Shown: positions 5,477 to 47,357 of the stretch, piece by piece
Position numbering within the stretch: position 1 is the first letter of the stretch
How the letters are laid out: each line of letters starts with the position of its first letter
Assembly: GCA_016214565.1 (NCBI GenBank)
Contig: JACROE010000002.1
Location: forward strand, 792,007-856,006
Direction: 5' to 3'
Origin: Candidatus Kerfeldbacteria bacterium
Lineage (GTDB): Bacteria; Patescibacteriota; Patescibacteriia; UBA10025; JAHIVO01
Length of the DNA stretch: 64,000 nt
Made by a program: the position numbers and the translations under genes
Notes under the pieces: generated by a model
The model's database searches: none
What the model was told of the DNA's origin: nothing
The model's input: only the letters and a program-made list of their open reading frames with translations

Positions 5477-7588
5477 TTGGTATACTATGAGTGTATGGCA
5501 CGGAAACAAAAATCACCAACTACTGGCGTACCGACCGAAATAACGACTGATGATCAGGAGGCGTTTTCTAAGGATGAACTAGCGTCACTGGAGTCGGTTC
5601 GGCCCGCATCCAATTCGATATCGCAATCACGAGTGATTAAGGTTGAAGAAGAAGCGGAGCCGGCCACGCCTAAGTCAAGCCGAAAAAAAATATCCGAAGC
5701 AGCACAGCAGTTTTCCGATTTATATCGGCGCGGCATAGGGGGTACACCGTCGACGCATTTTGACCGAACAGTACCAGGCCGCCGTAAAAAAATCATTATC
5801 GCCGTTATCTGCGGTTTGTTGGTAATCTGCGGTGCAGTCGCCGCCGGGTTCTATTTTTTTGTGAATCGAGAGGCTCAATTTGCCAATGAATCAATCTCTG
5901 TTCGATTTGAAGATGAACCGGTGATTACTTCCGGCTCTTCGTCGACGCTCATCATTATCGTGGAGAATAATGAATCAGTTGCCGTGCAGGATGTTGAATT
6001 AACCCTACAGCTGCCCGACTCATTTACTTTTGAGTCCTCAATTCCCCAAGCGGAAAACGAAGCGCATAATGCTTGGCAGCTTGGCACCATTGAACCGGGA
6101 AAGCAGAAACGTTTGAGCCTAACGGGAATGTTTTTGGGTGAAACTGGCAGTGCCATTACTTTTCCAACAATTCTTAGCTATACGCCATCGAATTTTAGCT
6201 CAGTTTTCCAAACCCAGACGACGCTCCAGACGACCATCAGCGGTTCGGTGCTTGAACTTGATCTGGAGAGCCCACCAAAAAGCATTGCGGGTCGCGATGA
6301 TCTGTATACATTAACACTGACTAATACCGCTGATCATCCTATTGCCCAGGTGGAAATCTCGGTCACCGCCCCCAATGACATGACGGTGAGCAATGTGAGT
6401 CCCGACCCACGGACTGAGGGTAAGCTGATCTGGGCAATCGCAGAAATCAAGGCGGGTGAAGAAATGCAATTCTCCTGGTCAGGTCGCATGGATGCAGCGC
6501 AGGGCACCAGTGGTGAAATACTGGCACAAGCTGGATATACCGATAGCGCAGGTGTATATGTGCCACAGGCGGAAATTACCGCGTTGGTATTTGTGATTAA
6601 TCCGCAATTATTAGTAACCGTGCAGCAGAATGATAGCATCAATGGTGAGCCGCGCGGGTTTGGTGAGCCAGTGGCGTATACGATCATGCTCGAGAATGGG
6701 AGTGATAGTATTATTGAAAATGTGATTGTCGATTTTAAACTTGTGGGAGCGGTCATCAATTGGGATGGCCTCATTGATCCGTTTGCTGGCCATCTCACTG
6801 ACGGGACATTGACGTGGGACTCGACCACCGTGCCAGCGCTGAAGTCGCTAGCGCCCAATGATACAGCGGAAATCTCAATGACCGTACCGGTGAGCAATAC
6901 TTTTACCCCATCCTCCGCAGACGATGGTAATTTTACGATTACGGCTACCGCGACCGCGCACTCGTCAGATGTTCGGGATTTGGAGGGTGAAACGCTGTCA
7001 GTGACGAGTGAGCCCTTAGTGACTAAGATAACGAGTGCTGTTACCTTGCGCAGCGAAGGGAGATATTATAATGACGAATATATTCCAGTTGGGTCTGGTC
7101 CATATCCTCCGGAAGTCGGCACGGCAACGACTTATCGAGTGTACTGGTATTTGCAGAATACGACCAATGAAGTTCAGCAGGTGACCGTAAGTGCAACATT
7201 GCCACAGGGAGTCGTTTGGGCGTTCCAGAGTTCAGCCACGGCGGGGAGTGTCAGCTATGATGCCGAAACCCGAGTAGTCACCTGGTCAATCAACCGATTG
7301 CCGAGGCACGTTGGTCAATTTATTCCCGAACTTGAAGCGTCATTTGCCCTGAGCATGACGCCTGCCGTGAGCGATGTCGGCGATGTCTTGGTACTGCTCA
7401 ATGCCACGACGGTCAGCGGCACTGACGCATTTACTGAAAGTGAAATAGCCAAAACAAGCGCGCCGATCACGAGTGCGCTTCCGACTGATCCTGTCGCGGC
7501 AGGTGATGGAGCCGTCATCATGCCCAAGCCGACCAATAGCAACAGCAATACTAATTCGAACAGCAACCTTAATACGAACGCGAGTTAG
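5477..7588 (+). CDS. Large membrane-anchored surface protein with DUF11-like repeats and an Asn/Ser/Thr-rich C-terminal tail
   Basis: N-terminal transmembrane segment and repeated units of the form LTLTNTADHPIAQVEISVTAP. The low-complexity tail reads NSNSNTNSNSNLNTNAS. The likely true start is ATG 5495, 9 nt after a TATACT box. Confidence 0.5.
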   Translation: MVYYECMARKQKSPTTGVPTEITTDDQEAFSKDELASLESVRPASNSISQSRVIKVEEEAEPATPKSSRKKISEAAQQFSDLYRRGIGGTPSTHFDRTVPGRRKKIIIAVICGLLVICGAVAAGFYFFVNREAQFANESISVRFEDEPVITSGSSSTLIIIVENNESVAVQDVELTLQLPDSFTFESSIPQAENEAHNAWQLGTIEPGKQKRLSLTGMFLGETGSAITFPTILSYTPSNFSSVFQTQTTLQTTISGSVLELDLESPPKSIAGRDDLYTLTLTNTADHPIAQVEISVTAPNDMTVSNVSPDPRTEGKLIWAIAEIKAGEEMQFSWSGRMDAAQGTSGEILAQAGYTDSAGVYVPQAEITALVFVINPQLLVTVQQNDSINGEPRGFGEPVAYTIMLENGSDSIIENVIVDFKLVGAVINWDGLIDPFAGHLTDGTLTWDSTTVPALKSLAPNDTAEISMTVPVSNTFTPSSADDGNFTITATATAHSSDVRDLEGETLSVTSEPLVTKITSAVTLRSEGRYYNDEYIPVGSGPYPPEVGTATTYRVYWYLQNTTNEVQQVTVSATLPQGVVWAFQSSATAGSVSYDAETRVVTWSINRLPRHVGQFIPELEASFALSMTPAVSDVGDVLVLLNATTVSGTDAFTESEIAKTSAPITSALPTDPVAAGDGAVIMPKPTNSNSNTNSNSNLNTNAS

Positions 7589-33355: not shown

Positions 33356-33775
33356 ATGCAAATTTCCAACGTCCAGCGTACCATTGCCCGTGCGGTGATC
33401 GGGTACTTTTTCCGAGAGGAAAATTCCGGGTATATCGGTGAAACGAAAGTATATAACTTTTTTCGGTCAGGAATTCCATCGACAAAAACACCGGTTCCGG
33501 TAGTGAGATTGCCCAGCGATCGGCTGATTGATTTGCCTATTGGTTTTGCTGATCCAGTCAGTCTGTGTTGGTATCTCGAGGAGGCGTTAGGCATCCCCCG
33601 CATTCCCCGCGAGCGTCGCCGGCGGATCCCTACCGTTGAGGACATCCAGGATCTTCCGGTACTCGCCAATCGACATGCTGATTTCGATATGACGATCGAA
33701 TCGTTTGCCCGTGGCTTAGCTACCTGGCTCAAGCGTCGTCATCCTGACGTATTACAGCGATTGCACGTCGCGTAA
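33356..33775 (+). CDS. Hypothetical protein (139 aa)
   Basis: AGAGG Shine-Dalgarno; TTGACG-N17-TATGGT upstream; followed by the hairpin CCCCACG...CGTGGGG. Confidence 0.4.
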   Translation: MQISNVQRTIARAVIGYFFREENSGYIGETKVYNFFRSGIPSTKTPVPVVRLPSDRLIDLPIGFADPVSLCWYLEEALGIPRIPRERRRRIPTVEDIQDLPVLANRHADFDMTIESFARGLATWLKRRHPDVLQRLHVA

Positions 33776-33857
33776 CCTGGCTTTTCGCCAGACAAAATGC
33801 ACCCCACGTTGTTCATATGATCAGCGTGGGGTTTCTTATAATTGGTTGTATCGGTTG

Positions 33858-34124
33858 TTAACCGATCTGAAGTTCGGCAAAGAGCGTGCCGGCCATTTCG
33901 TGAAAATCCACGATCCGTCCCTGGTGGGAGGTGGGGGGCTGGTTGAAGCGTTCACGAGCGATGTCCACGGTGCGGTTTGTGTGGCTTTCGATGATCTGCC
34001 GTTGATCGGGAGTGATGGCAATTTTGATGGTGCCATTTGGGAGTGCGCGATTGATGAGAACATTCGCGCTCGGGACAGTTAGGCTATGATTTTTGCCTGG
34101 AAACTTGGAAACGACAAGGTGCAT
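33858..34124 (-). CDS. Hypothetical 88-aa protein
   Basis: CCACTGGAGGTTTCTC then ATG gives a strong Shine-Dalgarno. No homolog recognised. Confidence 0.35.
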   Translation of the reverse strand: MHLVVSKFPGKNHSLTVPSANVLINRALPNGTIKIAITPDQRQIIESHTNRTVDIARERFNQPPTSHQGRIVDFHEMAGTLFAELQIG

Positions 34125-34201
34125 GAGAAACCTCCAGTGGTGGGGCTAAGGTTGAGTGTTAGCTACACTCTATCAGTCATTTGGCGTATGTCAATATCAT
34201 T

Positions 34202-34234
34202 ATAAAAAACCCGCCAAACTCTTTGTTTGACGGG
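34202..34234 (-). terminator. Rho-independent terminator (minus strand)
   Basis: Stem CCCGCCAAAC/GTTTGACGGG with one mismatch, followed on the minus strand by TTTTTTAT. Confidence 0.55.
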
Positions 34235-34258
34235 TTGATGATAGTTAGCTCTACAGTC

Positions 34259-34474
34259 TTACACGTGGAAAACCACTACGGCGACATTTGGGTTATCGGT
34301 ACACGGAGAGATGCAGCCAACTTGGTTGTCGTGTGAATTTTTCTCGAAAATCCACAAGATGGTTTGATTCAACGGTTGGGGAAAGGGCGGCTTCCGGATG
34401 GTATATCCGGCCTGTCGGAGCTGCCGGGTGGCGCGGCGGCTTGCTCGGCGATATGCGCTATTGTGTGGTGCCAT
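34259..34474 (-). CDS. Candidate 71-aa Arg-rich small protein; alternatively part of a structured RNA
   Basis: TGGAGGACAAAACCC then ATG. The region is GC-rich (~60%) in a ~45% GC genome and is bracketed by two minus-strand terminators. Confidence 0.25.
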   Translation of the reverse strand: MAPHNSAYRRASRRATRQLRQAGYTIRKPPFPQPLNQTILWIFEKNSHDNQVGCISPCTDNPNVAVVVFHV

Positions 34475-34978
34475 GGGTTTTGTCCTCCAAGAACGATGTT
34501 TGTATGATTTTTATTTAATTACACAAAAAAATCTCCGATGTACGGAGATAGTAATGATTGAATATTATCTTCCCCGTGAACGGGCAGGAATGAGCACCTT
34601 TCGATTCCTCAAAAAAAGAGGAGGCCCGTTCGGCTTCATCCGGCATTGCCGGATTCCGCTCAGGGCACTTCGTGGTTGCTGGAACGGCATTGGGCCTGAT
34701 CCCTTTGCATCCGTTCACTCTTGATAATGTTAATTGTTAATGTGTGAATATCAGGCTATCACAAATTAAAAATAATTGTCAAAATGATTTTTATAAATTG
34801 TACTAAGGTTAGCGAAAATCACATGATCCACCCATTTTTTAAAAGTCTGGGTCTTGATTTATTCGCCGACTTGTACTAGTATGAAGTCCATCTTAAGGTT
34901 AAAAACTGTTAGTATTTCTCTAACCTTAGCGATTAATTGTACTTTTGACCTATCGAATTTATCCGCCAGAAATTTTCT

Positions 34979-35257
34979 ATGGAGAAACCTATTGAAAAAG
35001 CATGGTGGCAGCCAGCACTTGCGGTATTTGGTGAAGTTACCGGCTGGATCGTCGCACCGATTTTATTGGCGCTTTTTGGCGGTCGGTGGCTCGATGAGCG
35101 ATTCCAGACTGACCCCTGGTTTTATCTGGGATTGACGGCACTGGCCGTTACGATTACCGTCGTCGGTTTAGTCAAAATTGGAGGAAAATATATTCGACAA
35201 GTCGAAAACATGAAAACAACTAAGAAGCCAGATGAGCGAAACAACCGAACAACTTGA
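34979..35257 (+). CDS. AtpZ/AtpI-like small membrane protein of the ATP synthase operon
   Basis: Two TM helices; the first gene of the atp cluster; overlaps the atpB start. Confidence 0.45.
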   Translation: MEKPIEKAWWQPALAVFGEVTGWIVAPILLALFGGRWLDERFQTDPWFYLGLTALAVTITVVGLVKIGGKYIRQVENMKTTKKPDERNNRTT

Positions 35258-45857: not shown

Positions 45858-46655
45858 ATGGATCAAATTCAACAATCAGCTGATCAATTGCAATTAAAGT
45901 TAAAGCGATTACGTCGGTTTAACATCATTATGGCTTTTTTGCACGCGGCTCAGGGCGCGGCTATGTTGCTATTGAGCTCTTCATTTTCACTTTCAGTAAC
46001 TAGCGCATTTGTACGGATGGACTTCGAATCCGGCAAGTTGCAGCCATATTTACAAACAGTTTTTGAACTTCCTATCGGGTTTTTGGTTGCGTGCTTCTTA
46101 TTTTTGTCTGCAATAGCACATGCGCTTATTTCATTTGTACCAGCTATTAGCGCCTGGTATAACCGCAATTTGCTCAAAGGGGCGAATTACGCACGATGGG
46201 TAGAGTACGCTTTTAGCTCATCGGTGATGATGGTGGTGATTGCCATGTTGGTTGGGATGTATGACGGTATCAGCTTGTTATTCATTTTCTTTCTCAATGC
46301 TATGATGATCCTGTTCGGTTGGATGATGGAGCTGCACAATCAAACCACCCCAAAAACAAATTGGACAGCATATATTTTTGGTTGTATCGCCGGTATTGTT
46401 CCGTGGGTTGGCGTTGGTATCTATTTGTTTGCGGCGGGTGAAGGGGATGCGAAAGCACCCACATTTGTCTATTGGATCTACTTTTCGATTTTTCTATTTT
46501 TCAATAGTTTTGCCGTTAATCAAGTATTACAGTATAAAAAAGTGGGGAAGTGGCAGGATTACCTGTATGGAGAGCGGGCGTATATTATCCTTAGCTTAGT
46601 TGCAAAATCATTATTGGCATGGCAGGTGTGGGCAGGGACACTGCGACCAGTGTAG
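45858..46655 (+). CDS. Heliorhodopsin
   Basis: 7-TM protein, collinear with heliorhodopsin 48C12. RWVEYAFSSSVMMVVIA carries the counterion Glu, with FGCIAGIVPWVGV and FLFFNSFAV. ERAYIILSLVAKSLLAWQVWAGTL has the Schiff-base Lys in TM7. Confidence 0.85.
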   Translation: MDQIQQSADQLQLKLKRLRRFNIIMAFLHAAQGAAMLLLSSSFSLSVTSAFVRMDFESGKLQPYLQTVFELPIGFLVACFLFLSAIAHALISFVPAISAWYNRNLLKGANYARWVEYAFSSSVMMVVIAMLVGMYDGISLLFIFFLNAMMILFGWMMELHNQTTPKTNWTAYIFGCIAGIVPWVGVGIYLFAAGEGDAKAPTFVYWIYFSIFLFFNSFAVNQVLQYKKVGKWQDYLYGERAYIILSLVAKSLLAWQVWAGTLRPV

Positions 46656-46658
46656 TCT

Positions 46659-47357
46659 ATGACAAAATATAATCATCAGTCAGTTCAAGCCACCGGCGCC
46701 TCCCTGCGCGAAATCGTATTTGGCATGGAGGATGGCATGGTTTCCACCCTGGGAGCGGTGACTGGCATCGCCATCGGCAGCCAGGATCATTTTATGGTGG
46801 TGATGGCCGGTATGGTTATTATAGCGGTTGAGTCTATTTCCATGGGTGTTGGTTCATATCTATCAAATCGTTCACAACAAGATCTTCATCATCGGGTACT
46901 GCACGAGGAACGTGAGGAAATTAAGGATTACCCCCATGAGGAGCAACACGAATTAAATCGGATGTTTATTCGAGATGGATGGCCGCCACACTTAGCCGAG
47001 CACATGACTGAAGTGGCAGCTAAGGATCGCCATCTTATGCTTCAGGAAATGGCGTATCGTGAATTAAACATTGCCGGCACTTCACATGGCACTCCAATTC
47101 GAAATGGTATATATATGTTTATTGCTTATGTGGTTGGCGGAATGGTTCCTTTGCTTGCATATTTATTAATGAGTGTTTCTCAGGCAATGCCCATTTCGAT
47201 TGTTGTCACCCTACTGGGATTATTCGGGCTGGGAGCGGCCACTACTCGATTGACGAAGGGGGGATGGTTTAGATCAGGACTACGCATCATGATTCTTGGC
47301 GGCTTGGCAATGGTGATTGGATTAGTCGTAGGTAATTTTGCAAAAGACCTTAAATAA
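46659..47357 (+). CDS. VIT1/CCC1-family Fe/Mn transporter
   Basis: LREIVFGMEDGMVSTLGAVTGIAIG N-terminal motif; five TM helices; starts 4 nt after the heliorhodopsin stop. Confidence 0.7.
   Translation: MTKYNHQSVQATGASLREIVFGMEDGMVSTLGAVTGIAIGSQDHFMVVMAGMVIIAVESISMGVGSYLSNRSQQDLHHRVLHEEREEIKDYPHEEQHELNRMFIRDGWPPHLAEHMTEVAAKDRHLMLQEMAYRELNIAGTSHGTPIRNGIYMFIAYVVGGMVPLLAYLLMSVSQAMPISIVVTLLGLFGLGAATTRLTKGGWFRSGLRIMILGGLAMVIGLVVGNFAKDLK

Follow-up and report, generated by a model that had tools for sequence, protein, structure and literature searches.

The closest described relatives of the element reported here are the S-box leaders of Bacillus, for which an OFF mechanism is established: the helix P1, stabilised by S-adenosylmethionine (SAM), withholds the antiterminator strand, and the terminator forms. 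SAM-IV and SAM-I/IV are other SAM-binding aptamers of Rfam clan CL00012, with the same ligand and a related core, and the SAM riboswitches SreA and SreB of Listeria monocytogenes also act in trans. Class I SAM riboswitches (SAM-I) exert negative feedback on methionine and SAM genes, and tiny, domainless proteins of 58 amino acids (aa) lie behind class I cyclic di-GMP (c-di-GMP) riboswitches in Clostridioides difficile (PMC11477304). We analysed a stretch of 64,000 nucleotides (nt), hereafter the window, from a metagenome-assembled genome (MAG) of a Candidatus Kerfeldbacteria bacterium (Patescibacteria; assembly GCA_016214565.1, contig JACROE010000002.1, positions 792,007 to 856,006). Between positions 33780 and 34980, ahead of the atp genes, the minus strand holds a SAM-I aptamer, a terminator/antiterminator switch and an open reading frame (ORF) of 71 codons; the element is very probably a SAM-responsive transcriptional OFF switch for this 71-aa gene. 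In the literature library searched, no report of a natural SAM riboswitch from Patescibacteria or the candidate phyla radiation (CPR) was found, and a search for S-box riboswitches with small orphan ORFs gave nothing relevant.

The initial annotation of this stretch, made from the sequence by eye, had suggested an Rfam/Infernal scan and a comparison across relatives. The whole window was scanned against Rfam 15 with cmscan at gathering thresholds, and one match was returned, to RF00162 (SAM-I, S-box), at 34730..34562 on the minus strand (48.7 bits, gathering score 44.4; E = 4e-8 for the whole window; model positions 1-108 of 108). By its sequence the RNA at 34730..34562 is a class I SAM riboswitch and a member of RF00162. 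Of the aptamers of clan CL00012 cmscan keeps the best match, which here is RF00162 over the full model, P4 included; class I is therefore indicated, and not a variant without P4.

As in the B. subtilis S-box leaders (yitJ, metI, metK), helices P1-P4 form a four-way junction, the loop of P2 forms a pseudoknot with J3/4 (the segment joining P3 and P4), and the core sequences AGAG, AGGGA, GGCCC, GCAACC, GGUGC and AGAUAA are the same. In the full-length aptamer (34562..34730, minus strand), P1 is formed by 34730-34723 with 34569-34562, P4 (CCCG-UGAA-CGGG) lies at 34584..34573, and the pseudoknot pairs CAGG of the P2 loop with CCUG in J3/4. The window element differs from the B. subtilis leaders in its Patescibacteria host and in its branched P3, which appears as a 63-nt insertion in the P3 loop of the cmscan alignment (34605..34667). 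This insertion holds two hairpins, AUCCGGC-AAU-GCCGGAU (34654..34638) and one whose loop is U7; folded by itself, P3 is a three-way junction of -33 kcal/mol. Among the related loci described below, P3 is short and standard in one (L089) and carries 25-35 extra nt in two (L084 and L085). The two perfect hairpins singled out in the initial annotation, at 34638..34654 and 34573..34584, are indeed there, and correspond to this P3 hairpin and to P4.

The window element also differs from the B. subtilis leaders in P2. All four complete aptamers (window, 34705..34710; L084; L085; L089) carry six additional nt, AUGC(A/U)A, on the 5' side of the internal loop of P2; on its 3' side (window, 34686..34690) they read UG(C/U)CG, against a consensus of UGAAg, so that no clear canonical tandem G.A is seen and the second G.A pair of the kink-turn appears to be replaced. 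One G.A pair may be kept; the replaced bases can, as read, lengthen P2a by Watson-Crick pairs, and the loop may represent a variant kink-turn or some other bend module. Aptamer and expression platform together fold better than shuffled sequences (z = -2.8). Unconstrained minimum free energy folding of the 271-nt leader missed the SAM-I fold, which is uninformative where an aptamer has a pseudoknot and so large an insertion.

The expression platform is an intrinsic terminator detected by the terminator scan (AUCUCCG-UACAU-CGGAGAU and a U run; 34525..34549, minus strand), the hairpin of which (34549..34531; 7 bp, then U7) begins 12 nt past P1. The AUCUCC/GGAGAU stem and the U run are kept in three related loci (L001, L084, L085), the stem is UCUCCC/GGGAGA in the fourth (L089), and the loops differ. 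The competing antiterminator pairs the 3' strand of P4 and P1 (34577..34564, CGGGGAAGAUAAUA) with a segment that includes the 5' arm of the terminator (34555..34542). With the 3' arm of the terminator blocked, this antiterminator is the best fold (-14.1 kcal/mol; terminator fold, -17.9 kcal/mol), and equivalent helices were found in L084 (-18.6 kcal/mol) and L089 (-13.5 kcal/mol). On these pairings, formation of P1 and formation of the antiterminator are predicted to be mutually exclusive in the window. The B. subtilis leaders likewise have an intrinsic terminator in competition with an antiterminator built on the 3' strand of P1, and are switched off by premature termination, as is proposed for the window.

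A TTGACA and a -10-like hexamer are seen by eye about 30-50 nt upstream of the window aptamer, on the minus strand (34753..34782; -35 TTGACA, 34782..34777; 18-nt spacer; -10-like TAGCCT, 34758..34753), and L084, L085 and L089 show a similar pair, with the TTGACA about 40-60 nt ahead of the aptamer and the -10-like hexamer 16-18 nt beyond it. The window site is the putative promoter of the riboswitch transcript; in the consensus promoter scan it fell below threshold, with a weak -10. A strong intrinsic terminator at 34202..34236 (minus strand; 12-bp stem, 34236..34208, with 6 G-C pairs, then TTTTTTAT) would end the controlled transcript. It and the platform hairpin are the two minus-strand terminators of the initial annotation, both of which were recovered, with U runs.

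The minus-strand unit would accordingly read promoter, SAM-I riboswitch, terminator/antiterminator switch, 71-aa gene and final terminator. At high SAM, SAM would bind the four-helix aptamer and lock P1; the 3' strand of P1/P4 would then be withheld from the antiterminator, the AUCUCCG/CGGAGAU hairpin with its U run would form, and RNA polymerase would halt before the 71-aa gene. At low SAM, the GGGGAAGAUAAU strand would pair with the 5' arm of the terminator instead; with the antiterminator formed, polymerase would read through and the 71-aa protein would be made. On the basis of this low-SAM read-through, the protein is proposed to be a product induced by SAM starvation.

The gene that appears to be under riboswitch control is a 71-codon ORF on the minus strand (ATG at 34474, stop ending at 34259; pI of the protein, 10.4), with a Shine-Dalgarno (SD) sequence GGAGGA at 34488..34483. 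The family comprises six distinct sequences out of about 15 billion; the five besides the window protein, of 66-72 aa, came from searches of 5.8 billion protein clusters and 1.84 billion representatives and have the following identities to it: P0002, 68%; P0003, 44%; P0006, 39%; P0004, 30%; P0005, 26%. Compared with its closest relative, P0002 (on a 556-nt ENA contig), the window ORF has 0.24 nonsynonymous (dN) and 1.59 synonymous (dS) substitutions per site (dN/dS about 0.15), and differences at codon positions 1, 2 and 3 number 16, 15 and 37. The low dN/dS and the excess at third positions show the ORF to be a protein-coding gene under purifying selection. The comparison across relatives suggested by the initial annotation found both codon-level conservation of the 71-aa ORF and covariation of the RNA, which is described below.

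An AlphaFold2 model of the 71-aa protein (alignment of P0001-P0005; pLDDT, the predicted local distance difference test score, 85; pTM, the predicted template modelling score, 0.72) is confident and comprises a helix at the N-terminus (residues 4-21) plus four strands; the basic helix is predicted to lie on the four-stranded sheet, which includes an invariant Q-[VI]-G-C-I strand. Residues invariant across all six members include A22-G23, P29, W41, F43 and Q51-x-G53-C54-I55. No match to the protein was found in Pfam, NCBIfam, PHROGs or PADLOC, none to its profile among PDB sequences, and none to its model with Foldseek in PDB or BFVD. The NCBI record of the Kerfeldbacteria MAG has no coding sequence (CDS) for it between the 88-aa gene described below and atpZ, as follows from the consecutive accessions MBI5037828-30; gene calls on Logan contigs include it. 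Like the 58-aa proteins of C. difficile, it is a very small domainless protein behind a metabolite-sensing leader; ligand, riboswitch class and protein family differ, and there is no homology. The B. subtilis leaders precede genes for methionine, cysteine or SAM enzymes and transporters; here the target is a 71-aa orphan protein. In the five riboswitch-controlled members (P0001-P0004 and P0006) the initiator is the only methionine; such paucity would fit a sparing of sulphur and methionine in a starvation-induced protein, and is statistically not meaningful in proteins so short and closely related.

Contigs encoding homologues of the 71-aa protein were fetched and compared with the window. The layout of aptamer, terminator and small ORF recurs in four other metagenomic loci (L001, L084, L085, L089), and so accompanies five of the six family members, the window included. 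Three of these loci have RF00162 matches, each followed by terminator and ORF (L084, 46.9 bits; L085, 49.7 bits; L089, 60.7 bits). In the fourth, L001, the aptamer is cut by the contig end and only its 3' half is present, which over P4 and P1-3' does not differ from the window; the terminator stem is kept with a changed loop, and AGGAGGA and the ORF follow.

L089, given a SAM-I structure written by hand, served to build a covariance model, to which the four complete aptamers (window, L084, L085, L089) were realigned with Infernal; this alignment was used in place of a MAFFT alignment of the four leaders, in which P3 and P4 were misplaced. Over 33 pairs, pseudoknot included, pairing holds in 95.9% of cells and drops to 31-47% once the partners are slid; both sides have changed in four pairs, in P1, P2, P4 and the pseudoknot. 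The pseudoknot is CAGG/CCUG in the window and L084 and CUGG/CCAG in L085 and L089, with four of four pairs in each aptamer and one exchange of U-A for A-U. Four sequences make for thin statistics, and the alignment had been made to fit the structure; the evidence nevertheless points clearly one way, and the covariation argues for the SAM-I fold.

Between loci the aptamer core shares 77-91% identity, whereas their proteins are just 30-44% identical to that of the window. L089, a closer relative, likewise carries the module between RmuC and the atp operon (AtpB 70% and RmuC 76% identical to those of the window), and in L085 RmuC is convergent to the small ORF. Among GTDB representatives, the window AtpB is at most 73% identical to that of Patescibacteria/Parcubacteria MAGs. 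In 80 Patescibacteria atp loci from GTDB, neither the aptamer nor the protein was found by regular expression, covariance model or protein profile. No further relatives were found in GTDB genomes with the protein alignment, nor in the JGI metagenomes or IMG/VR with the protein alignment and a clade-specific DNA pattern; either the module is rare, or it is thinly sampled in these collections.

Several points weigh against a SAM-responsive switch for the 71-aa gene. The window aptamer scores only 4 bits above the gathering score of RF00162, and the internal loop of P2, with its 6-nt insertion and its replaced second G.A pair, is not that of a canonical kink-turn. Automatic folding picked no antiterminator for L001 and L085, and one is seen there by eye only with a bulged A. 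The promoters and terminators of CPR bacteria are assumed to act like those of model bacteria. Unlike the genes of classical S-box regulons, the downstream 71-aa gene has no recognisable link to the metabolism of methionine, cysteine or SAM. Finally, P0005 (L086, 1740..2012; L087; L088), the most divergent member, has no RF00162 match upstream; it follows a gene with an ABM domain (PF03992), starts with TTG and appears by eye to have a TTGACA promoter of its own. Alone in the family, it has an internal methionine and an acidic pI (6.0, against 8.8-10.7).

Some of these points could be taken to mean that the aptamer is a relic which no longer binds SAM and that the small gene is constitutive: the score lies close to the threshold, the kink-turn region is atypical, the gene is outside the classical regulon, and the paralogue P0005 has no riboswitch. 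Decay would be expected of a relic, whereas here the core nucleotides, the pseudoknot and the terminator/antiterminator pairing have been kept through compensatory changes while the proteins diverged to 30-44% identity, and we regard this explanation as very unlikely. It is also conceivable that the terminated leader is itself the main product, a small RNA acting in trans as SreA and SreB do, with the ORF secondary. Termination would give a stable, structured RNA of about 230 nt, in which the terminated SAM-I leader would resemble SreA/SreB, and the enlarged P3 could bear extra functions. The P3 extension is, however, conserved neither in length nor in sequence, nothing points to targets in trans, for which no search by complementarity was made, and wherever the aptamer occurs it is joined to an ORF of this one family, which is under purifying selection and has a strong SD; this coupling argues for control in cis, and a trans-acting role as the main one is judged highly unlikely. 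The initial annotation had proposed a housekeeping RNA (RNase P RNA, signal recognition particle (SRP) RNA, transfer-messenger RNA (tmRNA) or 6S RNA), in keeping with the local hairpins and with a fold better than random by the z-score given above. A structured RNA is present, as it had supposed, but none of these: a permissive cmscan of 33600-35100 (E <= 10; all 4227 Rfam families) returned nothing besides SAM, ARAGORN found 0 tRNA or tmRNA genes, and both singled-out hairpins, as well as the terminator at 34524-34549, are explained by the SAM-I aptamer with its terminator. Within the reach of Rfam and ARAGORN, a housekeeping RNA can thus practically be dismissed in favour of the cis-acting SAM-I riboswitch.

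The two other ORFs of the stretch call for the same weighing. The initial annotation had placed three ORFs, at 33858..34124 (minus), 34259..34474 (minus) and 34554..34724 (plus), and had offered a set of tiny basic proteins as its second reading; all three ORFs are present at these positions, the two on the minus strand (71 and 88 aa) are conserved and under purifying selection, and the 56-aa plus-strand ORF is spurious. It had noted no recognisable homology for them, and none has a significant Pfam or NCBIfam match (best E, 0.057-0.16, far below the family cut-offs). The good SD sequences that it had ascribed to all three hold for the minus-strand pair, with GGAGG(A) 6-8 nt upstream of the ATG; that of the plus-strand ORF, which it had described as sequestered in a hairpin, is merely the complement of the terminator arm of the riboswitch.

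The 88-aa gene (HZC01_03970, hypothetical protein, MBI5037829.1 of the Candidatus Kerfeldbacteria MAG; 34124..33858, minus strand) has an SD sequence GGAGG at 34135..34131, as read from the sequence, and a homologue in L001 (dN 0.28, dS 1.73, over the 34 codons available); it is a real, separate gene under purifying selection. Since it is the next ORF on the same strand, and since the inter-ORF terminator is missing in L001, the riboswitch might govern this gene, or both small genes as an operon. In the window, though, the 12-bp terminator with its U run stands between the ORFs, and is followed by a promoter-like TTGACA-16-TAGAGT with an upstream TG (34194..34167, minus strand; 10 of 12 matches in the promoter scan). 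After the small ORF of L084, L085 and L089 there is no 88-aa homologue, a convergent gene being found instead, which places the 88-aa gene outside the conserved module. Control of the 88-aa gene is therefore considered unlikely, and its inclusion in the regulated unit was rejected for the window; in L001 it is possible. There the segment 371..455 (corresponding to 34259..34125 of the window) has no strong inter-ORF terminator, and the GACTGATA promoter segment is kept; in L001 both small genes may be co-transcribed and SAM-responsive.

The plus-strand ORF of 56 aa (34554..34724) lies inside the riboswitch, antisense to the aptamer. That it encodes a real small basic protein with a ribosome-binding site masked by a hairpin could be argued from the GGAGAT preceding its ATG and from its presence in the gene calls on Logan contigs. 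Against this, it is wholly antisense to a conserved RNA, and its apparent SD is the terminator arm; neither start nor length is conserved in L084, L085 and L089, where antisense ORFs of 25-41 aa have different starts. To judge from the consecutive accessions, the NCBI record has no CDS for it, and its one family match is weak (E = 0.057; 13.6 bits, cut-off 25). A protein from this ORF is scarcely credible, and the ORF was rejected as a gene because it is antisense to the aptamer and has no counterpart of equivalent start and extent in the relatives.

The stretch 33780-34980 is flanked by a 139-aa gene (33356..33775, plus strand; MBI5037828.1 of the Candidatus Kerfeldbacteria MAG; no family match) and by atpZ (start at 34979; PF09527 match; MBI5037830.1), and all real features between them are on the minus strand. 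A hairpin, CCCCACG...CGTGGGG, read from the sequence at 33802..33831 between the convergent 139-aa (plus) and 88-aa (minus) genes, is probably a two-way terminator; its tails are TTTCTT on the plus strand and weaker, T-rich, on the minus strand, and it was not listed by the consensus terminator scan. A 39%-identical homologue of the 139-aa protein adjoins the module in L089 (9232..9678), but on the opposite side, which points to local rearrangement around the riboswitch unit.

Two general statements of the initial annotation did not survive. It had called 34260-34720 strikingly GC-rich and had seen in this the signature of a structured RNA; the G+C content there is 50.3%, with 47.3% for the window overall, and stands at the 79th percentile of 461-nt windows (mean, 47.4%; standard deviation, 3.6; maximum, 58.4), that of the whole of 33780-34980 is 45.2%, under the window average, and the region is compositionally ordinary. 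The stretch is not gene-poor either: two real protein genes and the riboswitch fill most of it. Farther off in the window, a heliorhodopsin gene (45858..46655, plus strand; PF18761, E = 1.5e-97) is directly followed by a gene like those of VIT1-family iron/manganese transporters (46659..47357, plus strand). A gene for a pilin-like protein of the type IV secretion system (T4SS; PF18895; 14580..14963, minus strand) and one for a 703-aa DUF11/NPCBM-associated repeat protein (5477..7588, plus strand) were also seen; their products are probably cell-surface components of a kind common in CPR genomes.

As an RNA, the element is an ordinary riboswitch of the SAM-I class; the interest lies in its orphan small-protein target and in a lesson for annotation, since a real small gene was omitted by NCBI and a false antisense ORF was added over the RNA in the calls on Logan contigs. 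Should the 71-aa protein prove ordinary, the finding would be one of routine Rfam annotation. For the protein our best guess, which is speculation, is a small factor with a binding or regulatory role in the SAM/methionine economy, in preference to an enzyme, given that it is small and has a basic helix and a single invariant cysteine. That the 66-72-aa family is a newly recognised SAM-starvation effector, specific to one lineage of Patescibacteria, is possible but doubtful; such an effector might retune an enzyme that consumes or produces SAM, act on the ribosome, or affect the uptake of host-derived methionine or SAM. There is only a very small chance that the riboswitch is a sentinel for the loss of SAM to SAM-degrading enzymes of phages, with the small protein as an abortive-infection effector.

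A riboswitch reveals the metabolite to which a gene product is tied, and such associations have previously been used to assign gene functions; for the 71-aa protein it is the only functional clue. Patescibacteria are ultrasmall, reduced and host-dependent, with few regulators known and very few cultured members. A SAM sensor wired to one tiny orphan protein in at least five related lineages would offer a handle on regulation and on the SAM economy in these bacteria.

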